From Acidimicrobiia bacterium (lineage in GTDB: Bacteria > Actinomycetota > Acidimicrobiia > IMCC26256 > JACDBD01): DNA of 64,000 nucleotides. Shown here piece by piece: positions 20,528 to 53,893 of the stretch (positions are counted from its first letter, which is position 1; every line of letters begins with the position of its first letter). The position numbers and the translations under genes are program-made. Location: contig JBOGFI010000072.1 of assembly GCA_050743365.1 (NCBI GenBank), positions 25,667-89,666 on the forward strand. The letters are read 5' to 3'. The notes beneath the pieces were generated by a model that made no database searches, was not told the DNA's origin, and saw only the letters and a program-made list of their open reading frames with translations.

Positions 20528-20576
20528 CCCGCCGCGCGAAGGCTCTCCCTGGACCGCGCCGGCCTGGGCCCCGACG

Positions 20577-23095: not shown

Positions 23096-23237
23096 CGTGG
23101 CACTCCTCAACCTCAACGACCGCGACAGGCTCACTGCGGGATATCGTCGGATGTCGCCGGGTCTTGAGGGCGTTTTGTCGACTACGGGCCAGCCGATCGC
23201 CCCAGTGGGTACGCGATGGGCGCCCTTCCCAGCGCGT

Positions 23238-26777: not shown

Positions 26778-26809
26778 TCAGCGCCCCCGGCAGTCAGCGC
26801 CCCCGGCAG
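26778..26809 (-). repeat. Perfect 2 x 16-nt tandem direct repeat (plus strand tcagcgcccccggcag) covering the last 12 nt of tRNA-Arg plus 4 nt of trailer
   Basis: Read directly: 26778-26793 is identical to 26794-26809. The second copy is part of the tRNA 3' end. Confidence 0.9.
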
Positions 26810-26869
26810 GATTCGAACCTGCGCACACGGCTCCGGAGGCCGATGCTCTATCCCCTGAGCTACGGGGGC
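26798..26869 (-). tRNA. tRNA-Arg (anticodon CCG)
   Basis: The minus strand reads GCCCCCG TA GCTC AGGGGATA GAGC A TCGGC CTCCGGA GCCGT GTGC GCAGG TTCGAAT CCTGC CGGGGGC G. This folds as a cloverleaf with a 7-bp acceptor stem, a GTTCGAAT T-loop and anticodon loop CU-CCG-GA. There is one U-U mismatch at the top of the anticodon stem, and CCA is not encoded. Confidence 0.85.
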
Positions 26870-34225: not shown

Positions 34226-34242
34226 TTCGCGAGACTGACCCT

Positions 34243-36593: not shown

Positions 36594-36624
36594 AGCCTCT
36601 CTCAGACGCGGTCCGCGGCCTAGT

Positions 36625-37551
36625 TCACCACTCGACGTCGGGGTAGAAGTGGCGGGCGAGTTCCGTCGTGCCTTCCTGCACTCGGCCGACCTCGTCGTCG
36701 GTGAGGCGTGACCGCCAGGCCTCGATGTTCCCCGCCGAGTCACGCTGAATTTGGTAGGGGTCGCCTTCGGGAGCCTCCGTGGGGTTGTCGGCGCTGCTGT
36801 GCTTCCGGATGACTGCTTCGGCCGCCGGCGTCATCTCCACATCAAGTGCCCGATACATGGCGCGAAAGCCCTCGATGGGGGCGGCGGACAGGTCTTCGTG
36901 CCGGATGAACTGCCAGTCGGGCCGACGTTGCTGGGTGACTCGGATCACCTCGTGGGTGACGACCCACGCCAGGACAGCGCCGTCGAAGGGGTCGTGCGGG
37001 CCGCGTAGCGCCTCGAGTCGCTCGCGATGCTGCTGCAGGTACACCTTCACGAGCTCCGGCTGGTCGAGGAACTTACCGAAGTCGTGAGTCCAGCCCACTC
37101 GCATGATGCTGGAGACGAAGGCCGCAGGGTGGCGAATCATGATCACGACCTGCATTCCGAACGTGTCAGCAAGCCATTCCGCCGAGAACAGCGCGATGGG
37201 ATCCTTCATCAGCGGGCGCAGGCCCGCGCGCCGTGCCTGCGACGCGCGACGGCCGGCAGCGACCACTTGCCGGACCTGTTTTCGGGTCCGGCAGGTCCGC
37301 AACTCCTTGTCGATCCGGTAGCGCAACTGGAGGGTGCGCTCAATCGGTGTCTTGAAGCTCGCCTCATTCGCCGGGTGGACGAACGTGAACCCACGGAAGG
37401 GAGCATCACAGAATCCCGGCCGGGGGATCTCTGGGTTGAAGGGCTCGTGGAGATAGGCGAACGATCCCGAAGCCTCGAGCATCCGACCCACCCAGGTCGT
37501 ACCGGACCGGTGCGACCCGGACACGAGCACAGGACTCGCCACCGTAGCCAT
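36625..37551 (-). CDS. Sulfotransferase family protein
   Basis: The N-terminal PAPS 5'-phosphosulfate loop is VLVSGSHRSGTTWVG. The 3'-phosphate region is IMIRHPAAFVSS. The gene is convergent with thrC. Confidence 0.8.
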   Translation of the reverse strand: MATVASPVLVSGSHRSGTTWVGRMLEASGSFAYLHEPFNPEIPRPGFCDAPFRGFTFVHPANEASFKTPIERTLQLRYRIDKELRTCRTRKQVRQVVAAGRRASQARRAGLRPLMKDPIALFSAEWLADTFGMQVVIMIRHPAAFVSSIMRVGWTHDFGKFLDQPELVKVYLQQHRERLEALRGPHDPFDGAVLAWVVTHEVIRVTQQRRPDWQFIRHEDLSAAPIEGFRAMYRALDVEMTPAAEAVIRKHSSADNPTEAPEGDPYQIQRDSAGNIEAWRSRLTDDEVGRVQEGTTELARHFYPDVEW

Positions 37552-37671
37552 CGTGCTCCCCCCGACTCACCGTTACCCTAGTGACAAGGCCGCGGCCCGC
37601 CGGAGCGCCATCGACGACGTCATCGAGAGCGGTTCGCGGTAGCGATGCCACGCAGCGCGCGCGCGCCCGCT

Positions 37672-37700
37672 TTGTGGATTACGGCGGCGAGTGTTAGTTT
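37672..37700 (+). promoter_or_regulatory. Candidate sigma-70-type promoter (TTGTGG - 17 nt - TAGTTT) for the rfbF operon
   Basis: Read directly from the sequence. It is the only AT-richer patch in the 315-bp intergenic region upstream of rfbF. Confidence 0.35.
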
Positions 37701-37741
37701 GCCTGGCCTTCGCGGGTAAGGGACGACGCCGGGGAGACGTG

Positions 37742-37870
37742 ATGGCCCAACGACTAGCCTTCGCGCGCAGCGTGGTCGTGGAAGGCGTCGCCGCCCACGA
37801 CGATCCCCGTCGGCGCGCGTGTCGCGAGGAGTTCATCGCATCGACAGCTGACGTCCGTGGAGGCGCGTGA
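37742..37870 (+). CDS. Possible upstream small ORF (42 aa) translationally coupled to rfbF
   Basis: ATG at 37742 lies 5 nt after GGGGAG. Own translation: MAQRLAFARSVVVEGVAAHDDPRRRACREEFIASTADVRGGA. Its stop overlaps the rfbF start (TGATG). GC3 is only moderate (about 30 of 42 codons end in G or C), so coding status is uncertain. Confidence 0.25.
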   Translation: MAQRLAFARSVVVEGVAAHDDPRRRACREEFIASTADVRGGA

Positions 37871-38640
37871 TGAAGGTCGGCATCCTGGCGGGCGGGCTGG
37901 GCACGCGCCTGGCCGAAGAGACCGAAGCCCTTCCCAAGCCGATGATCGAGATCGGCGGGAAGCCGATGCTGTGGCACATCATGAAGCACTACGCACACCA
38001 CGGCTTCTCCGACTTCGTCATCGCGCTCGGCTACAAGGGCGAGGTCATCAAGCGCTACATGGTCGAGTACTGCTCGCTGACGAGCAACCTCACCGTCCAC
38101 CTCGGCGAGGGGAGGGTCGAGCTGCACGAGGGGGAGCGCGAGAACTGGACCGCCGAGCTGATCGAGACCGGCTTCTACACCGCCACCGCAGGCCGCATCA
38201 AGCGACTCGCTCCTTACCTCGACGACGGCACGTTCCTGCTCACGTGGGGTGACGGCGTCTCCGACCTCGACCTCGAGGACCTCCTCGCCTTCCACCGCTC
38301 GCACGGCCGGCTGGCGACGCTGACCGCCGTCCGGCCCCCGGCTCGGTTCGGGCACATGGAGCTCGACGACGACGTCGTCACCGAGTTCTCGGAGAAGCCG
38401 CAGACCGGTGAGGGCTGGATCAACGGCGCGTTCTTCGTGCTCGAGCCGGGGGTGTTCGACTACGTCGAAGGCGACGACACGCAGTGGGAGCGCGAGCCGC
38501 TCGAGAACCTGGCCAAGGACGGCCAGCTCATGGCCTATCGCTACTCGGGCTTCTGGCAGTGCATGGACACCGTGCGCGACAAGAAGACCCTCGAGCGGCT
38601 CTGGGCGACGGGCGAGGCGCCCTGGAAGGTCTGGGACTGA
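37870..38640 (+). CDS. rfbF: Glucose-1-phosphate cytidylyltransferase
   Basis: The N-terminus [57 protein letters not shown] closely follows the RfbF N-terminus. GGAGG lies 6 nt upstream of ATG 37870. The track start is GTG at 37867. Confidence 0.9.
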
Positions 38641-38645
38641 TCGGC

Positions 38646-39707
38646 ATGCGAGTCCTGGTCACCGGCCATCAGGGGTACATCGGCGTCCGGCTCGCCCCGC
38701 TGTTCCGGTCGGCCGGCCACGACGTCGTGGGCCTCGACAGCGGGCTGTTCGACGACTGCACCCTCGGCCCGGCCGGCCCCGGCATCGACACGCTGGAGCG
38801 CGACGTCCGTGACGTGACCGCCCGCGACCTGCGCGGCTTCGACGCCGTGGTGCACCTCGCCGGGATCTCGAACGACCCGCTGGGCGACCTCGACCCCGAC
38901 TGCACGTACGACATCAACCATCGGGGGACCGTCCACCTCGCCGAGCAGGCGAAGGCGGCGGGGGTCGCGCGCTTCCTCTTCTCGTCGTCGTGCAGTCTCT
39001 ACGGCGCGGCCGGCGACGCGATGCTCGACGAGCAGGCGGAGTTCAACCCCGTGACGCCGTACGGGTGGTCGAAGGTGCTGGCCGAACGGGATCTCGGTGT
39101 CCTGGCCGACGACGGGTTCTGTCCCGTCTTCCTCAGGAACGCGACCGCCTACGGGGTGTCGGCCCGGCTGCGCGGCGACCTGGTCGTCAACAACCTGGTG
39201 GGCTACGCGGTGACAACGGGAGAGGTGTTCCTCAAGAGCGACGGGTCGCCGCTGCGGCCGCTGGTCCACATCGAGGACATCGCCCGCGCCTTCCTCGCCC
39301 TCCTCGAGGCGCCGCGCGAGCTCGTCCACGGCGAGGCGTTCAACGTGGGCGTCAGCAGCGAGAACTACCGAATCAGGGAGGTCGCCGCGCTCGTGGAGGA
39401 GCTGGTGCCGGGAAGCCGGGTCGTGTTCGCGCAGGACGCCGGCCCCGACCGGCGGAACTACCGGGTGAGCTGCGACAAGCTCGCGGCCACCATGCCGGCG
39501 TTTCGGCCGCAGTGGACCGTCCGGGCCGGCATCGAGGAGCTGGTCGCCGCCTTCGGCGCCGCCCGGCTCACGCTCGACGACCTCACCGGCTCCCGGCTCC
39601 AGCGGATCCAGCACGTCAAGCGGCTGCTGGACGAGCACAGGCTCGGTCCCGACCTGAGATGGCGCGAGGCCCGGGCAGGTGCCAGGGCGACGGCGGCGCA
39701 TGGCTGA
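38646..39707 (+). CDS. NAD-dependent epimerase/dehydratase (SDR)
   Basis: ATG at 38646 gives [16 protein letters not shown]. Motifs are SSSCSLYG and YGWSKVLAE (YxxxK). Confidence 0.85.
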
Positions 39708-40953
39708 GGGACCGCTGCCGCGCGCAGCGGCCTCGTGCCGGTCGTGTGGCGCGGACCGGCTCCGGCCGTTCCTCGATCTCGGCGAGACGCCGCTCGCCGA
39801 CGCCCTGGTGCGGCCGGGGGACCTCGCCAAGCCCGAACCGAGGTTCCCGCTGGTGGTGGCGTTCTGCCCCGAGTGCACGCTCGTGCAGATCCTCGAGGAG
39901 GTGCCGCCCGAGAAGCTCTTTGTCGAGAACTACCTCTACTTCTCGTCGTTCTCCGACGATCTGCTCGACCACGCCCGGCGCCATGCGCTCGACCTCGTCG
40001 ATCGCCAGGGGCTCGGTGCGAGCAGCCTCGCGGTCGAGCTCGCGAGCAACGACGGCTACCTCCTGCGCAACTTCGTCGACCGGGGCGTGCCGGTGCTCGG
40101 GATCGACCCCGCGCCCGACCAGGCCGAGGCGGCGGAGGCCGCCGGGGTGCCGACGATCCGCGAGTTCTTCGGCGTCGAGCTGGCGAAGCGGCTCGTCTCC
40201 GAGGGGCGGCGCGCCGACGTGATCGTGGCGAACAACGTGATGGCACACGTGCCCGATCTCAACGGGTTCGTCGAGGGAATGGAGATCCTGCTCGCCGACG
40301 ACGGGGTCGCCACGATCGAGAACCCGTACGTCCGGGACCTCGTCGAGCACGTCGAGTTCGACACCATCTACCACGAGCACTTCTGCTACTTCTCCTGCAC
40401 CGCCGTCGACGCCCTGATGCGGCGTCATGGCATGTTCCTCAACGACGTCGAGTACTTCCCGGGTCTCCACGGGGGGACCTTGCGGTGGTGGGTCGGGAAG
40501 CGGGAGCAGCCGTCCGAGACCGTCCGGCGCTACCTCGACGAGGAGCGCGCCACCGGCGTGACCGACTTCTCCTATTACCGCGATTTCGCCGAGCGCGTGG
40601 TTGCGATCAAGCGCGATCTGCTCGAGTTGCTCCGCGAGCTGAAGAGCGACGGCGCCCGGATCGCCGCTTACGGCGCCGCCGCCAAGGGCAGCACCCTCGT
40701 CAACTACGTCGGCATCGGCCCCGAGGTCGTCGACTTCGTCGTCGACCGCAACCTCCACAAGCAGGGCCTGTGCATGCCGGGAGTGCATCTCCCCATCCGC
40801 GACCCGGCTGCACTGCTCGATGAGCGACCCGAGTATGTGTTGCTCCTCGCCTGGAACTTCAAGGACGAGATCATGCGCCAGCAGGCCGAGTACCGGGAGC
40901 GGGGCGGTCGGTTCGTGGTGCCCGTGCCCGCCCCCACGGTGGTCTCGGCGTGA
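39700..40953 (+). CDS. TylCIII-type nucleotide-sugar methyltransferase (Zn-ribbon, SAM MTase and C-terminal Rossmann-like domain); module M0
   Basis: ATG at 39700 overlaps the SDR stop (ATGGCTGA). Motifs are CRSCG...[31 protein letters not shown] and DRNLHKQG. Confidence 0.85.
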
Positions 40954-42143
40954 GCGGCAGGGCCGCGACCGATGCTGCCTGCCCGGCGTGCGACGCGATC
41001 GGGATGGACGTTTTCCACGAGCAGGACGGCGTTCCCGCCCACAGCGTGCTCCTGCTGCCGAGCCGTGACGAGGCTCTCGGCTATCCGACCGGCGACCTCA
41101 GGCTCGGCTTCTGCCGCTCTTGTGGGTTCATCTCGAACCTGGCCTTCGACGTCGCGCTCAACGAGTACTCCCAGCGCTGCGAGGAGACGCAGGGGTTCTC
41201 GCCGCATTTCCGGGCCTGGCTGCGGGGACTGGCCGAGGGGTTCGTCGACCGCTACGACCTGCGGGGCAGGGACGTGCTCGAGATCGGGTGCGGGAAGGGC
41301 GAGTTCCTCGCCCTCGTCTGTGAGCTCGGCGCCGGCCGCGGCACCGGGATCGATCCTGCCTACGTGCCTGATCGACTCGAGAGCGAGGCCGCCGATCGCC
41401 TGACGTTCATCACGGAGCTCTACTCGGAGGCGTACGGGCACCTGGTCGGCGACGCCGTCGCGTGCCGCCACACGCTCGAGCACATCGCTCCCGTCGCAGA
41501 GTTCGTCCGCACGGTGCGGCGCTCGCTCGCCGACCGCGACGACGTGATCGTCTTCTTCGAGCTGCCCGAGACCCTCAGGGTGCTGCGCGAGATTGCGTTC
41601 TGGGACATCTACTACGAGCACTGCTCGTACTTCACCCCCGGCTCCCTCACCCGCCTCTTCCGGCGCGAGGGCTTCGACCCGATCGACCTCCGCCTCGACT
41701 ACGCCGACCAGTACGTCCTCCTCGACACCCGGCCGGGGACAGGCCGGGGGCCGCAACTTCCGCTGGAGGACGACCTCGCCGAGACTGCTCGCCTCGTCGA
41801 CCACTTCCGGCGGGTGTTCCCCGAACGGGTGGAGGAGCTCGCAGCGACGATTCGCGCCGTGCACGCCGGCGACGGCCATACCGTGATCTGGGGAGCGGGC
41901 TCGAAGGGCGTGGCGTTCCTCACGACGCTGGGGGTCTCGGAGGACGAGATCGAGTACGCCGTGGATATCGACCCGTACAAGCAGGGCATGTTCATGGCCG
42001 GGACGGGCCAGGAGATCGTCGCCCCCGCCTTCCTCGCCGACTACCGGCCCGATCTCGTGCTGGTCATGAATCCCGTGTACACGGACGAGATCGGGCGGGA
42101 GCTCGAGTCGATGGGTCTCGCTCCCAAGGTCGTGGCGGTGTGA
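40950..42143 (+). CDS. Zn-ribbon SAM-dependent methyltransferase, same architecture as M0; module M1
   Basis: GTGA overlap at 40950. Motifs are CPACD...CRSCG, LEIGCGKGEFL, HTLEH, WDIYYEH, WGAGSKG and DPYKQG. Confidence 0.8.
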   Translation: MSGRAATDAACPACDAIGMDVFHEQDGVPAHSVLLLPSRDEALGYPTGDLRLGFCRSCGFISNLAFDVALNEYSQRCEETQGFSPHFRAWLRGLAEGFVDRYDLRGRDVLEIGCGKGEFLALVCELGAGRGTGIDPAYVPDRLESEAADRLTFITELYSEAYGHLVGDAVACRHTLEHIAPVAEFVRTVRRSLADRDDVIVFFELPETLRVLREIAFWDIYYEHCSYFTPGSLTRLFRREGFDPIDLRLDYADQYVLLDTRPGTGRGPQLPLEDDLAETARLVDHFRRVFPERVEELAATIRAVHAGDGHTVIWGAGSKGVAFLTTLGVSEDEIEYAVDIDPYKQGMFMAGTGQEIVAPAFLADYRPDLVLVMNPVYTDEIGRELESMGLAPKVVAV

Positions 42144-44713
42144 GCGAGCTCTCCGGCCGCTCGGAGTGCGTGACGTGCGGGAGTGAGGCGCGGACGCGCG
42201 TCCTCTCGCTGGAGTCGATGCCGGCGCTGATCAACCAGCGTTTCCCCGACGCCGCCTCGGCGCGGTCGGCTCCGCGGGGCGACGTGGAGCTCTTCCTCTG
42301 CGATGAATGCGGGATGATCGCCAACGCCGCCTTCGACCCCAAGCTGGTGGAGTACAGCCCCGCCTACGAGAACTCGCTGCACTTCTCGCCCACCTTCGAG
42401 CGCTACGCCGAGGGCCTGGCCAAGCGCCTGGTCGAGACGTACGACCTCCACTACAAGGTCGTCGTGGAGGTGGGGTGCGGCAAGGGCGAGTTCCTGTCTC
42501 TGCTCTGTCAGGCCGGGAACAACCGCGGCGTCGGCTTCGACCCGAGCTACGGCGGTGAGCTCGACGACTTCAGCGCCGCCCGGCACATGCGATTCGTGCC
42601 CCAGCTCTTCCCGGAGCCCACGCACACGAGCTTTGTGGACCTCGTCTGTGCCCGCCACGTGCTGGAGCACACTGCCGATCCGAACCTGTTCCTGCACCGC
42701 ATCGCTCGCGCAGTCGGCAATCAACAGGCCGTCGTCTACCTCGAGGTCCCCAACGCGACGTACATGCTTCGTAGCCTCGCCGTGTGGGACGTGATCTACG
42801 AGCACGTGCTGTACCTCTCGCCGGTGTCGCTCGCGCGGCTCGTACACGAGCAGGGCTTCGACATCCGTGCCCTCGGTACGGCGTTCGACGCCCAGTACCT
42901 CTTCGTCGAAGCCCAGCCGTCCACAGGGCACGCCTCGGGTCGCCGCGACGACAGTGCCATCGCCGAGCTCCGAGAGCTGGCGGCGCGCTTCGAAGCCCAC
43001 CTCCGGACCACCGTCGACACCTGGCGCTCCCGTCTCGAGGAGCTCGAAGGTCGCGGCCGCCGGATCGCGCTCTGGGGCGCCGGTTCCAAGGGCGGCACGT
43101 TCCTCAACGTCGTCCCCGGCGCTGACCTTATCGAGTGGGTGGTCGACGTCAATCCTCGCAAGCAGGGGACCTTCATCACGGGGACGGGGCATCGCATCGT
43201 GGCGCCCGAACAGCTCGCGGGCGTTTCGCCTGACGTGGTCATCGTGCTCAACCCCATCTACGTGCCCGAGGTCTCTGGCCGGCTCCGAGAGCTGGCGATC
43301 GACGCCGAGGTGATCGGGCCCGGGGCCGAGCCGGTCTCCGATGCCGGATCAGGCGAGGTCGAGATCGACCTACGAGACGACACCGCGCGACCGGGGAGTG
43401 ACGTCCGAACCCGCGTCGGGGCGTCGGCAAGCTCGGGCTGCGTGACCTGCAGGGGCGAGACGCTGACGCCCGTCCTCCGGATCGAGTCGGTCCCCGCGCT
43501 CGTCAACCGGCGCTGGCACGACGCCGAGTCCGCGCGAGCAGCCCCGCGGGGCGCCATCGAGCTCGTCCTGTGCGAGGAATGCGGGATGATTTACAATGCC
43601 GCCTTCGATCCGAGCCTCGTCGAGCACACCGCTGCGCACGAGAGCTCGCTCCACTTCTCGCCGACCTTGGCGCGACACGAGCAGTCGGTGGCCGAACGGC
43701 TCATCAAGACGTACGACGTTCGTGGAAAGGAAGTGCTCGAGATCGGCTACGGGAAGGGCGAGTTCCTCGAGCTCATCTGCGCCGCGGGCGGCAACCGCGG
43801 CGTCGGCTACGACCCCAGCTACGACGGGGAGCTCGACGACGTCGCGGCGGCACGGAACATCCGGTTCGTGCGCGAGCTCCTCCCGGAGGCCGGCCACGCC
43901 AGAGCGGCCGACCTGGTCTGCTCCCGGCACGTGCTCGAGTACGACCCCGAGCCCAGGGCGTTCCTCGGCCGGTTGGGGCGGGCCATCGGCGACGCCTCGA
44001 CGATCCTCGACTTCGAGGTCCCCGATGCGCTGTACATGCTGCGCGAGCTCGCGATCTGGGGCGTCAGCTACGAGCAGCCGCTGTACTTCTGCGCCCCCTC
44101 CCTCTCGCGGTTGGTCCGCGAGATGGGGTTCGAGGTCGTCGAGACGGGGCCCACCTTCGGCGGGCAGTACCTCTATCTGCAAGCTTCGCGACCGGGCGGT
44201 CCGGGCTCCGTCGCGCCGGCCGCCGAGGTCACGGCCGAGCTGTGGGAGCTGGGCAGGTCGTTCGGTCGCGGCTTCGAGGCCGTTGTGCAGATCTGGCGTG
44301 AGCGCCTCGAGGAGCTCGAACGTGAAGGTCGCCGGGTGGCGCTCTGGGGCGCCGGGTCCGAGGGCGTGACCTTCCTCAACGTCGTGCCCGGCGCCGACCG
44401 TCTCGAGTGGGTCGTCGATATCAACCGCCGGAAGCAGGGGGCGTTCGTCGCCGGCACCGGGCAGCGCATCATGGCGCCCGAACAGCTCGCGAGCGCGTCA
44501 CCGGACGTGGTGATCGTCCTCAACCCGCTCTACGCCTCCGAGGTCCGTGCCTGGTTGCGAGAGCTGGCCATCGACGCCGAGGTGATCGGGCCTGGGGGCG
44601 CGCCGGTCTCCGATAACGGATCAGGCAGGGTCGAGATCGATCTACGCGACGACACCGCGCCCGGCGTCGGACGCGGGCACCGGAGGGACGAAAGTGCTCA
44701 CGACTCGCGATAG
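42140..44713 (+). CDS. Two-module methyltransferase fusion (M2-M3), 857 aa
   Basis: GTGA overlap at 42140; the first part of track ORF 41462.. is an artefact. M2 carries CVTCG...CDECG, VEVGCGKGEFL, HVLEH, WDVIYEH and WGAGSKG. The linker is GPGAEPVSDAGSGEVEIDLRDDTARPGSDVRTRVGASASSG. M3 carries CVTCRG...CEECG, LEIGYGKGEFL, HVLEY, WGVSYEQ and WGAGSEG. Confidence 0.75.
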   Translation: MSELSGRSECVTCGSEARTRVLSLESMPALINQRFPDAASARSAPRGDVELFLCDECGMIANAAFDPKLVEYSPAYENSLHFSPTFERYAEGLAKRLVETYDLHYKVVVEVGCGKGEFLSLLCQAGNNRGVGFDPSYGGELDDFSAARHMRFVPQLFPEPTHTSFVDLVCARHVLEHTADPNLFLHRIARAVGNQQAVVYLEVPNATYMLRSLAVWDVIYEHVLYLSPVSLARLVHEQGFDIRALGTAFDAQYLFVEAQPSTGHASGRRDDSAIAELRELAARFEAHLRTTVDTWRSRLEELEGRGRRIALWGAGSKGGTFLNVVPGADLIEWVVDVNPRKQGTFITGTGHRIVAPEQLAGVSPDVVIVLNPIYVPEVSGRLRELAIDAEVIGPGAEPVSDAGSGEVEIDLRDDTARPGSDVRTRVGASASSGCVTCRGETLTPVLRIESVPALVNRRWHDAESARAAPRGAIELVLCEECGMIYNAAFDPSLVEHTAAHESSLHFSPTLARHEQSVAERLIKTYDVRGKEVLEIGYGKGEFLELICAAGGNRGVGYDPSYDGELDDVAAARNIRFVRELLPEAGHARAADLVCSRHVLEYDPEPRAFLGRLGRAIGDASTILDFEVPDALYMLRELAIWGVSYEQPLYFCAPSLSRLVREMGFEVVETGPTFGGQYLYLQASRPGGPGSVAPAAEVTAELWELGRSFGRGFEAVVQIWRERLEELEREGRRVALWGAGSEGVTFLNVVPGADRLEWVVDINRRKQGAFVAGTGQRIMAPEQLASASPDVVIVLNPLYASEVRAWLRELAIDAEVIGPGGAPVSDNGSGRVEIDLRDDTAPGVGRGHRRDESAHDSR

Positions 44714-44758
44714 GGGCGCGATGCCCAAGAGCCCGCGTGCACCCGACACCGGCCCGGC

Positions 44759-45985: not shown

Positions 45986-47892
45986 TCGTCGGCTCGACCT
46001 GGGTGCCCATGCCTCTGTCACGACGACACTTCATCGCCGCCGGCTTCGGGTTGGTGGCAGGCGGCGTCGCCGCTGCCTGCCAGTCCGGGGGGCCGAGCCG
46101 ACGGTCACGAAATCCCGTGCCGGCGGGCCGGTGGAGCAACCCCGCAACCTGGGGTGGTGCCGTCCCCCGTCGCGGCGCGCACGTGGTGGTGGACCGGGCG
46201 GTGCTCGTCGACGTCGACGCCGAGGTGGCCAGCCTCACCATCAGCCCGGTAGGGACGCTGGTCTTCGACCCTGAGGGCGGACGCACCCTCGAGAGCGAGG
46301 GCAACGTCGTCGTCCACGGACGCCTCGCCATGCGCCCGGCGACGGCGTCGGCCGAGCACCGGCTCGTGTTCAGGGGCGTCGACGAGCGGCGCTTCGCCGG
46401 TGGTGGCATGGACCCGTTGGACTCCGACGTGGGCCTGTGGGTCATGGGCGCGGGGGTGCTCGACGCCGCCGGCACCCCGAAGCGGGCATGGTCGCGTCTC
46501 GCCGAGCCTGCCCGCTTCGGGACGAGCAGCATCACCGTGGCCGACCCCTCGGGCTGGCAGGCGGGCGACGAGATCGTCGTCACCCCGACCGAGGCCCCGT
46601 CCCTTCCCGAGCATCACCTGCGCCACGATCGCCGCCGCATCGCCTCGATCTCGGGGACCGAGATCGAGCTCGACACTCCTCTCGACTTCCCACACCCCGC
46701 CGTCGAGGTCGCGCCCGGGCACACGATGAGGGCCGAGGTCCTGAACCTGACCCGGAACGTCCGGATCGAAGGCACCCCCGACGGGCGTGCCCACGTGTTC
46801 ATTCGAGCCGGCCGCCAGACGATCTCCCACGTCGAGCTCGCCCACGTCGGTCCTCGCCAGCCGACGCCCGACCCGCAGGCGGACAGCCAGAAGGTGCTCG
46901 GTCGCTACGGCCTTCACTTCCACCATTGCGGCGACGGCTCGAGTGGCTCGACGGTCGAGGGCTGCGTCATCCGCGACGCCGGCAACCACGCCTTCGTGCC
47001 CCACACCTCCCACGGAATCACGTTCCGCGACTGCATCTCCCACGACACCATCGAGAAGCCGTACTGGTGGGACGAGTCCGAGCTCACCGACGACACGCTC
47101 TTCGAGCGCTGCGTCGCCAGTCGCTCGCGCCACGATCCCGACTCGCGCGGCTACGGCCACGAGGCATTCCTGTTCGGAGCCGGGGAGGGAAACCGGGCCC
47201 GGGACTGCGTGGCTTCGGGCATCTCGGGCGGCTTCGGTGGCTTCGGCTGGGACGCGCTCCACCCCCAGTCCGTATGGCCCGAGGCATCCGGCCTCGTCGC
47301 CCACAACATCAATGGCCCGGGCATCAAGGTGTGGCAGAACAATTTCGAGTGCCACCACATCCGCGGCTTCGTCAGCTACCACAACTCTGGCGCAGGCATC
47401 GAGCACGGCGCCTACGGCAACAACTACCTCTACGAGGACGGCATCTGCTACGGCAACGGGGCTTCGCCCATCGATGTCCACGCGTCGTTTACCGCTCCGC
47501 GCTCCGATGACAACGGCAAGGTCTGCGACCAGCGACAGACCTACCGCCGTATCCATTGCGACGGCGGGGGTCGGGCTGAGTACGGCATTCAGTTCGGCCC
47601 TACCCCCGCAGGCGCGTCTGACGACGGCCAGCCGGTGCTCATCGAGGAATGCACGTTCGCCGGTACCACCCGAGCGAACGTCGGCATGGTTGGTCCCGGC
47701 TCCGACACGCCGATCCTCGTCGACGCCTTGCGCAACACGTATGGCGGGAACGCCTTCTGGCTCAACTCGGATGTGCCGGCGGGTTCCCAGATCAAGGTCG
47801 ACGACCCGACGCACCGCCGGGTCACGCTGCGGGCGGCCGGCCAGCCGGGGACACCCAATGCGGAGTGGAACGCCTCCGTCGAGAGCCCCTGA
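45982..47892 (+). CDS. Secreted G8-domain / right-handed beta-helix protein, probable Tat-exported lipoprotein
   Basis: ATGA overlap with M4 at 45982-45985. The N-terminus is MIVGSTWVPMPLSRRHFIAAGFGLVAGGVAAAC, with a twin-arginine motif and lipobox-like AAAC. The G8-like start is WSNPATWGGAVPRRGAHVVVDRAVLVD. Repeated NHAF, GHEAF and GAGIEHG beta-helix-like segments follow. Confidence 0.8.
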   Translation: MIVGSTWVPMPLSRRHFIAAGFGLVAGGVAAACQSGGPSRRSRNPVPAGRWSNPATWGGAVPRRGAHVVVDRAVLVDVDAEVASLTISPVGTLVFDPEGGRTLESEGNVVVHGRLAMRPATASAEHRLVFRGVDERRFAGGGMDPLDSDVGLWVMGAGVLDAAGTPKRAWSRLAEPARFGTSSITVADPSGWQAGDEIVVTPTEAPSLPEHHLRHDRRRIASISGTEIELDTPLDFPHPAVEVAPGHTMRAEVLNLTRNVRIEGTPDGRAHVFIRAGRQTISHVELAHVGPRQPTPDPQADSQKVLGRYGLHFHHCGDGSSGSTVEGCVIRDAGNHAFVPHTSHGITFRDCISHDTIEKPYWWDESELTDDTLFERCVASRSRHDPDSRGYGHEAFLFGAGEGNRARDCVASGISGGFGGFGWDALHPQSVWPEASGLVAHNINGPGIKVWQNNFECHHIRGFVSYHNSGAGIEHGAYGNNYLYEDGICYGNGASPIDVHASFTAPRSDDNGKVCDQRQTYRRIHCDGGGRAEYGIQFGPTPAGASDDGQPVLIEECTFAGTTRANVGMVGPGSDTPILVDALRNTYGGNAFWLNSDVPAGSQIKVDDPTHRRVTLRAAGQPGTPNAEWNASVESP

Positions 47893-47909
47893 CACCCCTG
47901 AGCGCGCAC

Positions 47910-48764
47910 TTGACGCCGAAGCCCGCGACCAGGTCGTCCGATCTCGTGCTGGCCACCGTTCTGACCCATAACGATCCGGAGGCCCTCGCAGGCTGTCTCG
48001 CGGCGATCGCTCGTCAGACCCGGCGGCCCGACGCCGTCCTCGTCATCGACAATGGCAGCTCTCCGCTCGCCCGCGCCGCGGTCGACCGGCTCGCGGGCGA
48101 ATCGTGTGCCACCGTGCTGCGCTTGAGCGCCAATCTCGGGCCCGCCGGCGGGCATGCCGCCGGCCTGCGAGCGTTCCTGGCCGGCCCTTGCGATGTTGCG
48201 TGGGTCATGGACGACGACTGCGTGCCCGAGCCAGATTGCCTCCAGGCGATCCTGAGTGCCCGTGAGGCGCAAGACCGCGACGGCGTGTTGTTCCCGGCCC
48301 AGACCGATGAGGTTGGCGTGGAGCGCAACTGGCCGGGCTGGTTCGCAGTGCTCGTGCCGCGCGCGGTCGTCGATCGAGTCGGCGTGCCGAGGGAGGAGTT
48401 CTTCTGGTGGGCGGAGGACACCGAGTATCTCCAGTGGCGCATCCCCAGGGCCGGCTTCCCCCTGCAGTGGGTCGCGGGAGCACGAGTGCAGCACCGGAGG
48501 CGACAGGCCACGGGGCCCAAGCCGGCATGGAAGGTCTATTACGAGGCCAGGAACAGCGTGTACTACCGGCTGCGAGTCCAGCGACCCTTCCAGCGACCCC
48601 TCAGGATCCAAAAGGTCTCCCGGCTCACGAGGGCACTGTCGAGAACACTATGGTCCTTGATCACCGAGAGCCACGATCGTCGGAACCGCTTGCGTATGTT
48701 CGCCCGAGGCATCTTCGACGGGCTCCGGGGACGCCTCGGCCGAACCGTCGTGCCCGAAGCCTGA
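47910..48764 (+). CDS. Glycosyltransferase family 2
   Basis: Motifs are ATVLTHNDPEALAGCLAAIARQTRRPDAVLVIDNGSS and a DxD motif (MDDDCVP). The start is uncertain: TTG at 47910 or GTG at 47946. Confidence 0.75.
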   Translation: MTPKPATRSSDLVLATVLTHNDPEALAGCLAAIARQTRRPDAVLVIDNGSSPLARAAVDRLAGESCATVLRLSANLGPAGGHAAGLRAFLAGPCDVAWVMDDDCVPEPDCLQAILSAREAQDRDGVLFPAQTDEVGVERNWPGWFAVLVPRAVVDRVGVPREEFFWWAEDTEYLQWRIPRAGFPLQWVAGARVQHRRRQATGPKPAWKVYYEARNSVYYRLRVQRPFQRPLRIQKVSRLTRALSRTLWSLITESHDRRNRLRMFARGIFDGLRGRLGRTVVPEA

Positions 48765-48786
48765 GTCGCCGCATCAGGAGCTAACG

Positions 48787-49683
48787 ATGTCCGACGGTCG
48801 TCCCCGGGTAAGCGTCGGCCTTCCCGTGTACAACGGGCAGGCGTTCCTTGCCGAGGCAATCGAGTCGATCCTTGCCCAGGACTTCACCGACCTCGAGCTG
48901 GTCATCGGTGACAACGCGTCGACCGATGCGACTCCGGAGATCTGCCGCCGGTACCTCGGCGCCGATGGAAGGGTCTCGTACCTCCGTAGCGAGGTGAACC
49001 GGGGCGCGGCATGGAACTTCAGCCGGCTCGTGGACGCCGCCCGGGGCGAGTACTTCAAGTGGGCCGCCAGCGACGACGTTTGTGCGCCCACATACCTCTC
49101 TCGCTGCGTCGAGGTACTCGATCACCAGGCGGACGTCGTGCTCTGCTCGACGGGAACCGTCATGATCGACGAGCGGGGTCAACCGATCGGGCCGCTGGAG
49201 ATCACGAACCACGGGACCGCGGGCGAGCCGGCGGAACGATTTCGGGATCTTGTGCTCCGGCCGCACAAGGCCTTCTCGGTGTTCGGCGTGATCCGACGAG
49301 ACGCCCTCTGCGAAACGCCACGGCTGGGCGCCTACACGGCATCCGACCTGGTGACACTGGCCGAGCTCGCGCTCAGGGGGCGGTTCCACGAGGTGCCGGA
49401 ACCGCTGTTCTTCAACCGTGACCACGGCGGGCGCTCGATCCGCGCGAATCCCACCTACAAGGCGAGGCAACCCTGGTTCGATCCGAACCGGGCGGGCAGG
49501 ATCACGCTTCCTCGGTGGCGGCTTGGCATCGAATACGCGCGGGCAATCGGTCGCGCTCCGCTGTCCTCCGTTCAGCGGAGGCAGGCGTACGAAGCACTCG
49601 CGAGGTGGAGCTGGGCCAATGGGCTGTCACTCGGCAACGACATCGTTCGCGCGGCCCGCGACCTGGGCCGGTTCTCTCAGTAG
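48787..49683 (+). CDS. Glycosyltransferase family 2
   Basis: The N-terminus is MSDGRPRVSVGLPVYNGQAFLAEAIESILAQDFTDLELVIGDNASTDAT. It is a paralogue of 52955..53893. Confidence 0.85.
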   Translation: MSDGRPRVSVGLPVYNGQAFLAEAIESILAQDFTDLELVIGDNASTDATPEICRRYLGADGRVSYLRSEVNRGAAWNFSRLVDAARGEYFKWAASDDVCAPTYLSRCVEVLDHQADVVLCSTGTVMIDERGQPIGPLEITNHGTAGEPAERFRDLVLRPHKAFSVFGVIRRDALCETPRLGAYTASDLVTLAELALRGRFHEVPEPLFFNRDHGGRSIRANPTYKARQPWFDPNRAGRITLPRWRLGIEYARAIGRAPLSSVQRRQAYEALARWSWANGLSLGNDIVRAARDLGRFSQ

Positions 49684-50531
49684 CCGCCCAACACGCCGAG
49701 TTTGCGGCCATACTCGAGTGACCGCCCGTACAGCCACAGGCCGAGCGGGTAGACGACGGCGATGAAGGTCGCGAGCATCAGGACTGCCTGGCCGGTGGAG
49801 GGACCGGAGATCGCCGAGCTGTCGGCCATCAGGAGCCGCCGCATCGCGCTGAGGGCGTAGGTCTGGGGAAGGCAGTAGGCGACGATCTTCAGCGGCAGCG
49901 GGAGCAGCGCCACCGGGAACACGACGCCGGCCAACACGGAGCTCGCGAGCGTGTAGAGGCTGAGCACGGGGTCAGACCGCTTGGACAGGACCTTCACGCT
50001 CGCGGCCACCACGCCGATCGCGTGGCCAGCTGCGATCCCGAGGGCCAGCACCACCAGGGCGGCCGGGACGCCCACCAGCCGGAGGTCGGCGCCGAGCGCG
50101 AGGGCCGTGCCCAGCCCGGCCAATCCGGCGCCGACGCTCACCAGCACGGGCCAGCCGGCGAGCCCGAACGGGATGAGCCGCCACCGGATCGGCTCGATGA
50201 GCAGCGTCTCGAACCGTCCCTGCTGCAACGCATAGTCCAGATGGTTCCCGAAGCCTCTGAGCCCCCCGTCCATCGCCAGGGCCGTGGTCAGGCCGATGAC
50301 CGCGAAGGTGTAGTAGCTGTCGCCCACCGACGGGCCGGAGTCGACGAGTCGAGCGACGAAGTAGTAGACGATCGGTGACGTCGTCGCGCTGACCAGCTGG
50401 ATGACGAGGAAGAGCGGGTACGCCATCGCTTCCGTGTACCCCATCCAGACGAAGGCCCCGGCGACCTGGGCGCCGCGTCGAGCCCTCGTCCACGGGACGC
50501 GTAGCCCAATCCTCTGCGACACGTGCGTCAC
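49677..50531 (-). CDS. ABC-2 type polysaccharide exporter permease (Wzm-like)
   Basis: It has six hydrophobic segments and a GTGA overlap with the ATPase gene at 50528-50531. It converges on the GT2 gene with a 7-bp overlap of the two 3' ends. Confidence 0.85.
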   Translation of the reverse strand: MTHVSQRIGLRVPWTRARRGAQVAGAFVWMGYTEAMAYPLFLVIQLVSATTSPIVYYFVARLVDSGPSVGDSYYTFAVIGLTTALAMDGGLRGFGNHLDYALQQGRFETLLIEPIRWRLIPFGLAGWPVLVSVGAGLAGLGTALALGADLRLVGVPAALVVLALGIAAGHAIGVVAASVKVLSKRSDPVLSLYTLASSVLAGVVFPVALLPLPLKIVAYCLPQTYALSAMRRLLMADSSAISGPSTGQAVLMLATFIAVVYPLGLWLYGRSLEYGRKLGVLGGY

Positions 50532-51583
50532 TCCGGCGGCTCCTCGACGAGCCTGGTGAGCAGCTCACGGAGCGGCATCCGCGCTTCCTCGATCGAGACC
50601 ACGTGAGCGAGATGGCCATCCAGGCTGACGAGCAGATCGCCCGTGCGTCCCGCCACCACGGCGGTGACCGAATCCGCCTCGACCTCCACCACCTCCACGC
50701 CCGGCGTGCTCACCAGCCCCCCGGCCGCAACTCTGGCGGTGTCGGCGTCGTCGAACCGGACCACCACTCGCGGATTTTCCCAGACGTCACGCAGCGAGTG
50801 GAGGTCTCCCCAGTGCACGAGCATGCCCCGATCGAGGAACGCGACATTGTCGTGGAGGGCGTCGATCTCCTCCAGACGGTGCGAGCTCAGGAGCACGGCG
50901 AGGCCCTGCTCCTTCGTCAGGCGCTCGATGAGGTTCAGGAGCGTGTGTGAGCCGACGGGGTCGACGTTGGCAGTGGGCTCGTCGAGGATGAGGACCCGCG
51001 GCCGGTGCAGCAGTGCCCGGGCGAGCTGGAGCCGGGCGCGCATCCCGCTCGAGAGCGCGAAGCCGGTGCGGGTGCGGGCATGGCCGAGCCCGACGATCTC
51101 GAGCGTCTCGCCCACGACTGCTTCGAGTCGCGACCCCGAGAGCCCCTGGAGCCGGCCGTGGAAGGCGAGATTCTGCTCGCACGTGTGCCGGAGGTAGAGG
51201 CTCCGATCGTCGGCGGGCATGAAGCCAACGAGCTTGCGTACTCGTCTCGGCTCGCGCTCGATGTCAGAGCCCATGATCGTCGCGCTGCCGTTCGTGGCGG
51301 TGGTGAGCCCGGTGAGGATGCGGAAGAGCGTCGACTTCCCCGCGCCGTTCGGGCCGACGACCGCGCACACCTCGCCCGGTCGCACCGACAGGGTGACGTC
51401 GTCGAGCGCGCGCACCGGCTGGTCGATGGCTGAGCGCAAGAGGAACCGCATCCACATCGGCGACGGCTCGTAGACCTTCGTGAGATGCTGGACCTCGACG
51501 ATCGGCTCTTGCGTTGCCCGAGGTTCGAGCTTGGTGGGGGCTGGGTGCACGGTGCCTTCGAGGTGGATCACGCCGGGCGTCAA
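50528..51583 (-). CDS. ABC transporter ATP-binding protein (Wzt-like) with a ~100-aa C-terminal extension
   Basis: Walker A is GPNGAGKST, the signature motif is LSSGMRARL and Walker B is VLILDEP. The start is uncertain: TTG at 51583, or GTG at 51571 or 51550. Confidence 0.9.
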   Translation of the reverse strand: MTPGVIHLEGTVHPAPTKLEPRATQEPIVEVQHLTKVYEPSPMWMRFLLRSAIDQPVRALDDVTLSVRPGEVCAVVGPNGAGKSTLFRILTGLTTATNGSATIMGSDIEREPRRVRKLVGFMPADDRSLYLRHTCEQNLAFHGRLQGLSGSRLEAVVGETLEIVGLGHARTRTGFALSSGMRARLQLARALLHRPRVLILDEPTANVDPVGSHTLLNLIERLTKEQGLAVLLSSHRLEEIDALHDNVAFLDRGMLVHWGDLHSLRDVWENPRVVVRFDDADTARVAAGGLVSTPGVEVVEVEADSVTAVVAGRTGDLLVSLDGHLAHVVSIEEARMPLRELLTRLVEEPPE

Positions 51584-51593
51584 TTGAAATTGA
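51580..51593. promoter_or_regulatory. AT-rich perfect palindrome TCAATT-GA-AATTGA in the divergent wzt / GT2 control region
   Basis: Read directly from the sequence. It is the most AT-rich 14-mer I noticed in the window. It overlaps the most upstream possible wzt start codon. Confidence 0.4.
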
Positions 51594-51966
51594 TGAGCGA
51601 ACTAGGCTACCCGCGTGAGTGCGGCAGGCAGAAATTCGGCGTGATCTCCGTGCCTGGATCGGGGTCCATCGGCGCGGGCAGGGCAGCATCGCTTCCATCA
51701 CCGACGAGACCACCCGCGTCCTCGCCGACCGGTCCGCGTTCTCGATCGTCGGCGGGCGCACCGGGCGGAGCCCCGCCCGCGAGGTGCCGGGCATCCAGCA
51801 TCCGGCGTTGGACGACCGGATGGACCGGCAGGTGCTCGACTCGCTCCCGGCGGTTCGCGACCGAGCGCGGCCGCGCGAGCGCTCAGCGCGCGAGACCTCG
51901 ACTCCGGCTCAGAAGGCGCTTGTCCGTCCCTCTATGCTCCCGGCCCAGGCTCCGAGGTGGCGCGAG

Positions 51967-52932
51967 ATGAGCATGAATAGATCTCGTGCCGGCGGTCAGC
52001 GGCACTCGCCGGCGTTCAGCGTCGTCGTGCCGACCTTCAATCGATCCGCGCTGGTCCCCCGGGCGATCCGGAGCGTGCTCCATCAGACGTTCACCGACTT
52101 CGACCTCATCGTCGTGGACGACGGTTCCACCGACGAAACGCCGGACGTGCTCGCGTCCATCCACGATCCACGGCTTCGCCTCGTGCGTCAGGAGAACCAG
52201 GGCTTGTCGGCAGCGCGCAACGCGGGTGCGGCGATCGCCGCCGGTGAATGGCTGACGTTCCTCGACGACGACGACGAGGCCCTCCCCGGATGGCTCGAGC
52301 TCTTCCGACGGCAGATCAACGGCTCCGCATGTGGCGTGGTGTGCTGCGGCGGCATCATCGTCGACGAACAGGGGCGCACGCTCCAGACCGTGAAGCCGGA
52401 GCAGCTCGGCCCCGCCTACGAGAACCAGGTGTGCTCTTTGCTCGCCGGCACGTACGGCGTACGCCGTGAGCTGTTCGACGCGGTGTGCGGGTATGTCCCC
52501 GGCCTGCGGGCTTCGCACGGGACGGAGCTCGTGTTTCGCCTGTTGCCGCACTGCGTCTCCCGGGGCTTGACCGTCCGCAGCACCTCCGAGCCCGGGGTGA
52601 GAATCGAGTCGCGGCCGGCCGCGCAACGAAATCGGGGGAAGCCCGACGTCCTCCTCGACGGGGTGACGTACATCCTGGAGCGTCACCGCGACCGCATCCG
52701 ACTGTCGCCGCAGACCTTTGCCGACTTCACGTCGATAGCCGGTGTCAACGCAGCTCGCCTGGGGAGATACCGTGAAGCTCGCCGGTTTCTCGCTCAGGCG
52801 ATCCGGGCCGAGCCGCTGGCGCCGAGGCGATGGGCACGACTCCTGCTGAGCCTCGTGCCGCCGCTGGGCGACCGGGTGTGGCGACGGTGGGATGCCGGGG
52901 CGTCGAACCCTCCGCCGAAGGTAGTTGCGTGA
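51967..52932 (+). CDS. Glycosyltransferase family 2
   Basis: ATG at 51967 gives MSMNRSRAGGQRHSPAFSVVVPTFNRSALVPRAIRSVLHQTFTDFDLIVVDDGSTDET, and a LDDDDE motif is present. The in-frame upstream region back to GTG at 51619 also has high GC3, so a longer N-terminus cannot be excluded. Confidence 0.85.
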   Translation: MSMNRSRAGGQRHSPAFSVVVPTFNRSALVPRAIRSVLHQTFTDFDLIVVDDGSTDETPDVLASIHDPRLRLVRQENQGLSAARNAGAAIAAGEWLTFLDDDDEALPGWLELFRRQINGSACGVVCCGGIIVDEQGRTLQTVKPEQLGPAYENQVCSLLAGTYGVRRELFDAVCGYVPGLRASHGTELVFRLLPHCVSRGLTVRSTSEPGVRIESRPAAQRNRGKPDVLLDGVTYILERHRDRIRLSPQTFADFTSIAGVNAARLGRYREARRFLAQAIRAEPLAPRRWARLLLSLVPPLGDRVWRRWDAGASNPPPKVVA

Positions 52933-52954
52933 TGAGGTTCTCCGAGGTCGGCTG

Positions 52955-53893
52955 ATGAGCGACAACGCACCTACGGTGACCGTGGGCCTGCCCGTGTACA
53001 ACGGTGGCCAACACGTCGCTCAGTGCTTGGATTCATGGCTCGCGCAGGAGTTCGAGGATTTCGAGGTGATCGTCTCCGACAACGCCTCGGAAGATGGGAC
53101 GGAAGCGATCTGTCGTGAGTACGCGTCCAGGGACCCGAGGATCAGGTACCACCGGAACGCCAGCAATCTCGGGGCGGCCGCCAACTCGAACCGCGTGTTC
53201 GGCCTGGCGTCCGGGAAGTACTTCAAGCTGAGCGGTCACGACGACTGGTTCTCGCCCAAGCTGTTGTCACACTGCGTCGAGGTGCTGGAGAATCGGCCGG
53301 ACGTCGTTCTTTGCTACTGGCTCGAGACGATCGTCGACAGCCGAGACGACGTCCTGCGTGCCTACGACGAGAGCCAGCGCTTCGCCGTGGATTCGCCCCG
53401 CGCCAGCGAGCGCTTCCATGAGTGGTTGTGGTCCTTCGTGTCCGGTGCTCGCGGCGATCCGATCTACGGGATGATTCGAACCGAGGTGACGAGGACGGTC
53501 AGGCCCCTGTATCCCGGATTCCAGTCGAACTTCGTCTACCTTGCCGAGCTCAGCCTGCAGGGACCCTGGCACACTGTGCCCGAGCATCTGGCGTTCCGGC
53601 GTGCCAATACCGCGCGAGTCACCGTGCCGGCGATGATGACCTGGCTGGAGCCCCAGAACTCGCGGCGCGTTCGATTCCCTCATTGGCGACGCTGGTGCGA
53701 GTACCTCAGGGTGTTGCTCACGAGTCAGCAGCTGACCGCGAGGGAGAAGGCATACCTCTCTCTGAACACGTCCTACTACTTCTTCTCGCGCGACCTAAAG
53801 GGTCTGGCGTGGGATCTTCCGTACGCAGCCCGCCAGCTGATCGCGTTGCAGAAGGAAAGGCGGGCTCGACCCGCAAACGCCCCGAGTGCGTGA
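52955..53893 (+). CDS. Glycosyltransferase family 2
   Basis: ATG at 52955 lies 7 nt after GAGG. The N-terminus is MSDNAPTVTVGLPVYNGGQHVAQCLDSWLAQEFEDFEVIVSDNASEDGT. Confidence 0.85.
   Translation: MSDNAPTVTVGLPVYNGGQHVAQCLDSWLAQEFEDFEVIVSDNASEDGTEAICREYASRDPRIRYHRNASNLGAAANSNRVFGLASGKYFKLSGHDDWFSPKLLSHCVEVLENRPDVVLCYWLETIVDSRDDVLRAYDESQRFAVDSPRASERFHEWLWSFVSGARGDPIYGMIRTEVTRTVRPLYPGFQSNFVYLAELSLQGPWHTVPEHLAFRRANTARVTVPAMMTWLEPQNSRRVRFPHWRRWCEYLRVLLTSQQLTAREKAYLSLNTSYYFFSRDLKGLAWDLPYAARQLIALQKERRARPANAPSA

Follow-up and report, generated by a model that had tools for sequence, protein, structure and literature searches.

The locus described here is a 17-kb stretch (36.6–53.9 kb) of a 64,000-nt fragment, referred to below as the window, from an Acidimicrobiia metagenome-assembled genome (MAG; GCA_050743365.1, contig JBOGFI010000072.1), and it directly follows the housekeeping genes argS-lysA-hom-thrC. 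On balance, we read it as a genuine modular cluster for a surface or secreted glycan, which would be assembled in the cytoplasm with a methyl-branched CDP-hexose and exported by an ATP-binding cassette (ABC) transporter, and which has not displaced the thrB gene. In terms of genome organisation, it is ordinary for a variable set of glycan genes to lie alongside housekeeping genes.

In the proposed pathway, RfbF, whose family assignment is clear, would produce CDP-glucose, and a short-chain dehydrogenase/reductase (SDR) resembling GalE and Cj1427 would oxidise it at C4 without 6-deoxygenation. A C-methyltransferase of established family (CMT1) could then place a methyl branch at C-3 of the resulting 4-keto sugar, and the methyltransferase (MT) modules MT2, MT3a and MT5 may add further methyl groups, most likely while the sugar is still linked to CDP; module MT3b is probably impaired. 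The glycosyltransferase GT2b and three other soluble family 2 glycosyltransferases (GT2s) would assemble the glycan in the cytoplasm, the sulfotransferase may decorate it, and an ABC-2 exporter of the DrrAB/NodIJ-like type would carry it out of the cell, where a beta-helix lipoprotein exported by the twin-arginine translocation (Tat) system may trim or modify it.

Genes were called via third-position GC (the window has a GC content of about 70%) and named with Pfam and NCBIfam. The inventory of an earlier note on this DNA was confirmed gene by gene, coordinates included:

36625-37551, minus strand: sulfotransferase (PF13469, 44.7 bits, cutoff 27)
37870-38640, plus strand: rfbF/ddhA, glucose-1-phosphate cytidylyltransferase (TIGR02623 equivalog, 368 bits, cutoff 300)
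38646-39707, plus strand: extended SDR, GalE-like (PF01370)
39700-40953, plus strand: CMT1 (PF08421, PF13489, PF08484)
40950-42143, plus strand: MT2, TylC3-like paralogue
42140-44713, plus strand: MT3a-MT3b fusion, TylC3-like paralogues (MT3b at 43412-44713)
44759 or 44795 to 45985, plus strand: MT5, TylC3-like paralogue
45982-47892, plus strand: G8/CEMIP beta-helix protein (PF10162, PF24606)
47946-48764, plus strand: GT2a (PF00535)
48787-49683, plus strand: GT2b, cassette-associated transferase (PF00535)
49677-50531, minus strand: ABC-2 permease of the exporter pair (weak PF01061, PF12698)
50528-51571, minus strand: ABC ATPase (PF00005)
51619-52932, plus strand: GT2c (PF00535, 122 bits)
52955-53893, plus strand: GT2d (PF00535, 96 bits)
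53919-54443, minus strand: BldD-like helix-turn-helix regulator at the right edge of the locus (PF21179, PF13560)

A metagenome contig from a different sample (L174, JGI 3300078400) retains the order MT5-G8-GT2a-GT2b, with identities of 83-90%. The earlier note had matched the gene content to no described polymer, and the outcome here is the same. What the locus shares with the methylglucose lipopolysaccharide and methylmannose polysaccharide of mycobacteria is the idea of a multiply methylated actinobacterial glycan. Those polysaccharides are cytoplasmic and O-methylated and are not known to derive from CDP-sugars or TylC3-like enzymes, whereas the exporter and the secreted beta-helix enzyme encoded here argue against equivalence.

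Proposed enzymes of CDP-sugar synthesis

The SDR carries the motifs SSS and YxxxK and lacks the TDE dehydratase dyad. It was considered as a divergent CDP-glucose 4,6-dehydratase, an assignment that was rejected on the motif (SSS, not TDE) and on its score of only 20.6 bits against TIGR02622, the family of that enzyme (cutoff 278). Its best match in the PDB is 6vo6 (E=1e-32), presumably the structure of Cj1427. Cj1427 of Campylobacter jejuni is a GDP-heptose C4 dehydrogenase that yields a 4-keto nucleotide sugar without dehydration (PMC10680097). Motifs and similarity together suggest a CDP-hexose C4 oxidoreductase acting without 6-deoxygenation. The likeness to Cj1427 concerns a predicted activity; the match is no stronger than E=1e-32, and the nucleotide would be CDP rather than GDP.

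CMT1 matches structures in the PDB over its full length (5t64, E=1.6e-90; 4rv9, E=7.5e-87; 3ndi, E=9e-83), and its Y-x-E-H motif aligns with theirs. By these similarities it is a bona fide NDP-hexose 3-C-methyltransferase of the TylC3/TcaB9/KijD1 type, with the same three-domain architecture (zinc ribbon, S-adenosylmethionine (SAM) domain and C-terminal nucleotide-sugar domain). The Y-x-E-H motif presumably corresponds to the active-site residues Y222, E224 and H225 of TcaB9. The locus differs from the TylC3/TcaB9/KijD1 systems in the partners of the enzyme, a cytidylyltransferase and a non-dehydratase SDR, which imply a CDP-hexose instead of a dTDP-2,6-dideoxy sugar, and in an expanded array of tandem paralogues without known function.

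The presence of ddhA/rfbF recalls the CDP-3,6-dideoxyhexose (ddh/rfb) pathway, but neither a 4,6-dehydratase-type SDR nor ddhC- or ddhD-like genes were found among the gene calls of the locus. An annotation-level precedent for making CDP-glucose alongside a TylC3-type C-methyltransferase comes from Sinorhizobium meliloti, where ddhA, ddhB and an NDP-hexose 3-C-methyltransferase form a triad (SMb21416-18; PMC4053727); there the second gene is ddhB, while the SDR here is GalE/Cj1427-like.

Tandem methyltransferase paralogues

The five methyltransferase modules are held in four genes (39700-45985), and four of the modules (MT2, MT3a, MT3b and MT5) form a tandem paralogue array. Repeats D1-D5 in the DNA of this array, which recur roughly every 1185, 1272 and 1353 nt, are the only sizeable direct repeats in the window. 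At the amino acid level MT3a is 59-61% identical to MT3b or MT5, MT2 is 35-37% identical to the others, and CMT1 24-26%. MT3b (43412-44713) and MT5 (44759-45985) share 86% of their residues and represent a very recent tandem duplication.

A zinc ribbon of the form CxxC...CxxC is present in every module, provided that MT5 begins at the ATG at 44759, and all modules retain the SAM and C-terminal domains. The paralogues match TylC3 and TcaB9 in the PDB with the same layout (E=1e-17 to 1e-8). Y-x-E-H is kept in CMT1, MT2, MT3a and MT5, while MT3b has E-Q, with Gln replacing His, and its SAM motif I reads GYGKG instead of GCGKG; this module is probably impaired, and may be inactivated or re-purposed. 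The earlier note had predicted a heavily methylated product. Five methyltransferase modules are indeed present, but the prediction is weakened, and the count overstates the number of distinct chemistries, because four of them are tandem paralogues, one of which (MT3b) lacks the catalytic His.

Since the paralogues keep the nucleotide-binding C-terminal domain, their methylation is most likely directed at the CDP-sugar. It is possible, though less likely, that CMT1 alone acts on a nucleotide sugar and that the four paralogues O-methylate the assembled glycan, either residue by residue or as a terminal cap in the manner of WbdD or WsaE. The low identity of the paralogues to CMT1 and the fusion of an MT module to a GT2b-type transferase in two metagenome contigs (L087 and L088) are consistent with this, and methyl caps are frequent in ABC-dependent O-antigen systems. 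Against it stand the Y-x-E-H motif and the full TylC3 architecture of the paralogues, down to the C-terminal domain (the nucleotide-binding part of TcaB9), as well as an ATPase without a cap-binding domain. The paralogues, moreover, always travel with rfbF, the SDR and CMT, and one homologue is fused to an SDR. Methylation at the level of the CDP-sugar is the more likely assignment for MT2, MT3a and MT5.

A cassette shared across phyla

The genes rfbF-SDR-CMT-MT2-MT3-GT2b constitute a cassette which recurs in Longibacter salinarum (L085) and in L087 and L088. Identities to the proteins of the window are 66-69% for RfbF, 55-61% for the SDR, 51-54% for CMT1, 50% for MT2, 38-45% for MT3 and 42-47% for GT2b, the last in both L085 and L087/88. 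RfbF homologues with 57-69% identity head the cassette in L085, L087/88 and L089; in L089 the cassette takes a variant form that includes an MT-SDR fusion. No transporter accompanies the cassette in L087/88, where it occurs on its own. A literature search for the cassette returned the annotated triad of S. meliloti and no characterised member.

The cassette may, though we consider this quite improbable, make an undescribed nucleotide sugar, namely a CDP-hexose with an intact 6-OH and several methyl substituents about a 4-keto centre that forms only transiently, such as branches at both C-3 and C-5. If so, the MT2 family, which comprises 1633 clusters at 50% identity (E<=1e-30) with generic names only, would represent a new class of nucleotide-sugar methyltransferases of some 1,600 such clusters in Bacteria and Archaea. 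As a compact unit found across phyla that combines CDP-glucose synthesis, a non-dehydratase SDR and several TylC3-like methyltransferases, the cassette is a worthwhile biochemical lead. It could underlie new methyl-branched sugars of the cell envelope in uncultured Actinomycetota that are abundant in soil and water.

A gene for an FG-GAP/ASPIC (UnbV) protein is located near the methyltransferase cassette both in the window (55904-57616) and in L. salinarum (L085, 15066-16436, minus strand), which may be a coincidence or a functional link.

Predicted glycan assembly and export

All four GT2 enzymes are soluble. GT2c and GT2d contain no transmembrane segments, and their NCBIfam matches were sub-threshold only (EpsD, TuaG, PglI and similar). 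The sulfotransferase gene is convergent with thrC across a gap of 31 bp. Its product has the 5'-phosphosulfate-binding motif SHRSGTT, the loop for 3'-phosphoadenosine 5'-phosphosulfate (PAPS), and no transmembrane segment, features of a cytoplasmic PAPS-type enzyme; no sequence relatives of it were found in the PDB.

The permease is the only membrane protein of the locus, with 4-5 hydrophobic segments (two of the five called overlap), and the PDB search gave no sequence relatives for it either. The ATPase scored best in NCBIfam against DrrA (198 bits), followed by PQQ-ABC, GldA and NodI. Its best 60 matches in the PDB comprised ABCA proteins (ABCA4/3/1), NosF, FtsE, LptB and Rv1218c; neither Wzt nor TarH was among them. 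No carbohydrate-binding Wzt_C domain was found in the ATPase (347-351 amino acids), a cap-reading, chain-length feature that is optional in this family of pathways. The "Wzm/Wzt" label given to this pair earlier is over-specific and is not borne out by the best matches, which are DrrA, NodI and ABCA. Cytoplasmic assembly followed by ABC-2 export looks supported, with soluble GT2s, an ABC-2 pair and neither a Wzx flippase nor a Wzy polymerase in the locus. These traits are shared with the ABC-dependent pathways for O-antigen (Wzm/Wzt), teichoic acid (TagGH) and mycobacterial galactan, from which the locus differs in that its ATPase is closer to DrrA, NodI and ABCA than to Wzt, TagH or KpsT, and in having no initiating transferase or evident terminator of its own.

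The same exporter bears on the size of the product, which could be a small decorated oligosaccharide, a glycolipid or a saccharide-type secondary metabolite leaving through a DrrAB/NodIJ-like pump, rather than a long polymer; we regard this as unlikely. It would accord with the resemblance of the ATPase to exporters of lipids and drugs, with the lack in the locus of an initiating transferase, a polymerase, a chain-length regulator and a Wzt carbohydrate-binding module, and with the use of TylC3-type C-methyltransferases typical of antibiotic sugar pathways. The gene set also has an analogy in Nod factors, which involve a GT2 (NodC), a methyltransferase (NodS), a sulfotransferase (NodH) and an exporter (NodIJ), and the cassette of L087/88 has no transporter beside it. 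Yet four GT2s and a depolymerase-like beta-helix lipoprotein are what polysaccharide clusters typically encode, genes of the aglycone, acyl or NodA/NodB-like kinds are absent, and the locus lies among glycan clusters bearing Wzx, Wzy-like, BY-kinase and Bac_transf genes. A surface or secreted glycan remains the preferred product.

The secreted G8 beta-helix protein

The G8 protein, which joins a G8 domain to a right-handed beta-helix, has a Tat motif (SRRHFI) and a lipobox-like sequence with Cys (VAAAC), so that it is probably exported by the Tat pathway and anchored to lipid. Its AlphaFold2 model (pLDDT 88.9) had the TMEM2 ectodomain as its best match in Foldseek (E=4.5e-17, TMq 0.68). Capsule lyases, tailspikes and AlgE epimerases ranked next, and this set of structures points to a putative glycan depolymerase or modifier. 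More than 1,399 homologues occur in varied polysaccharide clusters and not with the cassette; the protein was rejected as a marker of this locus type, as it belongs to a large family found in many unrelated polysaccharide clusters.

In two Actinomycetota contigs, L173 (12.1-18.3 kb) and L172 (19.5-22 kb), the G8 homologue is followed by GerE/response-regulator genes, arrays of small PqqD-domain genes and an NTP_transf_5 gene. This G8-PqqD neighbourhood is conserved across both contigs and is unexplained.

The argS-thrC block and the gene order after thrC

Upstream of the locus, argS, lysA, hom and thrC are contiguous on one strand (31296-36593), overlapping or nearly abutting, and are preceded by a GGDEF gene on the other strand:

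30384-31166, minus strand: GGDEF gene (Pfam/NCBIfam)
31296-32948, plus strand: argS (Pfam/NCBIfam)
32945-34225, plus strand: lysA (Pfam/NCBIfam)
34243-35547, plus strand: hom (Pfam/NCBIfam)
35544-36593, plus strand: thrC (TIGR00260, 305 bits, cutoff 167)

Two Acidimicrobiia loci, L004 and L092, share the order GGDEF(-)-argS-lysA-hom-thrC, and L003 shares the part from argS to thrC. The lineage is poorly sampled. ThrC was used to scan 185,579 species genomes as well as JGI metagenomes, and no close relative was detected, the best match being 76% identical. The nearest loci, from MAGs labelled Acidimicrobiia or Acidimicrobiales and from unlabelled contigs, are 69-77% identical in Hom, 68-74% in ArgS and 69-77% in ThrC, Hom and ArgS together, whereas Streptomyces, Modestobacter and other members of the class Actinomycetes reach only 52-57% (Hom) and 44-48% (ArgS). 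Exact copies of ThrC, the double methyltransferase and the glycosyltransferase GT4c are present in the NCBI MAG GCA_975305365.1, in which the double methyltransferase and a DegT aminotransferase, on the same contig and just past the window end, carry the label "Acidimicrobiia bacterium".

No thrB was found anywhere in the window, in agreement with the earlier note: no called gene has a GHMP kinase domain, tblastn with five ThrB queries gave only short stretches (best E=0.009), and a GHMP motif scan was also empty. Remnants of thrB, homK and rho were likewise sought in the window, with none at E<=10. In a synteny survey by tblastn with a Streptomyces ThrB, thrB directly followed thrC in essentially all loci of the class Actinomycetes and, among the surveyed loci, only there. 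It did so in none of the 14 Acidimicrobiia-type loci with readable sequence past thrC, where the next gene is rho (nine loci), a HomK-like gene (two) or a sortase and/or SDR gene (three):

thrC followed by rho, then prfA and prmC where sequence reaches: L009, L010, L093, L094, L096-L098; partial in L095 and L101
thrC followed by an ApgM/HomK-family gene: L008, L091
thrC followed by sortase, SDR and GSDH genes, then HomK-like and rho: L004
thrC followed by sortase and SDR genes (L092) or by an SDR gene (L003), both loci being truncated there

Judged from this gene order, the expectation appropriate to the lineage after thrC is (homK)-rho, not thrB, and the ancestral neighbour of thrC is rho, sometimes with HomK before it. 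The expectation of thrC-thrB fails because the Acidimicrobiia-type relatives have rho, HomK-like or other genes in that position, and a displaced thrB was apparent only because the synteny of Mycobacterium had been applied to Acidimicrobiia. The earlier proposal, which put the locus at the expected position of thrB, is thus not upheld, since the close relatives lack an argS-thrB block, the very finding that the earlier note had taken to speak against an insertion. With the Rv1292-Rv1297-type block of M. tuberculosis the window has argS-lysA-hom-thrC in common and differs in having neither thrB nor rho after thrC.

An ancestral argS-lysA-hom-thrC-thrB operon in which the glycan locus came to be inserted at, or took over, the position of thrB is thus extremely improbable. 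The near-universal adjacency of thrC and thrB in the class Actinomycetes would suit it, as would an intact argS-thrC segment without thrB in the window; the gene order of the 14 relatives and the lack of any thrB remnant contradict it. More generally, operon expectations from Mycobacterium and Streptomyces do not transfer to Acidimicrobiia, and a "missing thrB" there is not evidence of insertion.

There is a genuine break of synteny after thrC when the window is measured against rho rather than thrB. In the relatives, rho lies 0.15-4.9 kb past thrC, while none of rho, homK, prfA and thrB was found in the 27.4 kb of the window after thrC or in the 8.7 kb beyond it (about 36 kb in all). No relative examined carries this glycan locus, the neighbours of their thrC genes being non-glycan.

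The HomK-like genes adjoin thrC or lie just before rho (L004, 13813-15018; L008, about 11.2-12.4 kb; L091, 2857-3984). Their products scored 400-414 bits against TIGR02535, below its cutoff of 446, and passed TIGR00306 (ApgM subfamily). A TIGR02535/ThrB2 ("HomK") protein complements an Escherichia coli thrB mutant, as does a Dehalococcoides protein classed only as TIGR00306 (GapMind work; bioRxiv 10.1101/2024.10.14.618325; PMC7311316); no literature on the homoserine kinase of Acidimicrobiia was found. The relatives L004, L008 and L091, with an ApgM/HomK gene beside thrC or rho, resemble the ThrB-less lineages with thrC-homK or thrC-rho order, from which the window itself differs in having neither homK nor rho, so that its enzyme for homoserine phosphorylation may be encoded elsewhere. 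Genes of the ApgM/HomK family were also noted at L114, L124-L127, L129, L142, L143, L147, L150, L165 and L167, and the order hom-thrC-homK is common in many distant lineages too, which fits a replacement of ThrB by HomK.

Evidence against a glycan cluster of this type

Several observations weigh against the reading of the stretch as an ABC-exported glycan cluster with a methyl-branched CDP-hexose. No C4 ketoreductase is encoded in the locus, so that its one SDR would have to catalyse two steps of the proposed sugar pathway. For the paralogous methyltransferases both C- and O-methylation are possible, as are both the CDP-sugar and the glycan as substrate, and the MT-GT2 fusion fits either. Within 36.6-53.9 kb there is no polyprenyl-phosphate initiating transferase of the WecA or WbaP type, no chain terminator and no Wzt carbohydrate-binding domain; the nearest Bac_transf gene lies about 11 kb downstream, beyond the window (L082, 14913-15497), and an initiating transferase may be supplied in trans. 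The ATPase has more in common with exporters of drugs and lipids than with Wzt or TagH, so that what is exported may be a small oligosaccharide or a glycolipid. Base composition shifts only slightly, with a third-position GC content of 0.88 in the locus and 0.94 in argS-thrC, and neither mobility genes (integrase or transposase domains in any called gene) nor flanking repeats were found. Finally, rho was never located, which leaves the thrC-rho break as either an insertion or a rearrangement.

Genomic surroundings and regulation

At least four glycan clusters surround the GGDEF-argS-lysA-hom-thrC block over more than 70 kb. Glycan genes occupy 1-29.7 kb of the window and run past 53893 to at least about 72.7 kb. 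The cluster at 1-20.7 kb, to which genes of these three kinds are confined, includes a Wzx-type flippase, a BY-kinase and a membrane protein with weak similarity to Wzy (PF04932 Wzy_C, 26.5 bits, cutoff 31.7), and genes for a UDP-glucose dehydrogenase, a phosphotyrosine phosphatase and an epimerase are situated at 26.9-29.7 kb. Downstream, 54.5-64 kb and the following 8.7 kb encode GT4 enzymes, WecB, Bac_transf, an ATP-grasp protein and DegT. A chain-length regulator of the Wzz/BY-kinase type (18889-20742, minus strand) and a low-molecular-weight phosphotyrosine phosphatase (28242-28742, plus strand) are the usual pair for the upstream cluster with the flippase and the Wzy-like protein.

The only tRNA gene, tRNA-Arg(CCG) at 26797-26869 (minus strand), is far from the locus, a short way upstream of the gene for UDP-glucose dehydrogenase. 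It adjoins a 128-amino-acid fragment (25464-25850, minus strand) that consists of the C-terminal part of a GT1/GT4 domain only, an arrangement that may be the scar of an older rearrangement or integration.

A scan for promoters and terminators performed no better than with shuffled sequences. The BldD-like protein at the right edge of the locus scored 105 bits against NF050110 (BldD), below the cutoff of 250, and contains REE-x8-RATD, close to the cyclic di-GMP (c-di-GMP) motif RxD-x8-RxxD; it may regulate the glycan genes in response to c-di-GMP. The window also contains two GGDEF genes and one EAL gene (20844-23134, minus strand; 30384-31166, minus strand), and together with the BldD-like regulator they suggest c-di-GMP control of the glycan clusters.

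The 45-kb contig of the NCBI MAG and a 19-kb Logan contig from SRR27067773 both end about 200 bp past the same DegT gene, at about 72.7 kb (L082, about 19.6-19.8 kb; ends of L083 and L170). This shared end of the assemblies hints at a repeat or a strain-variable junction.

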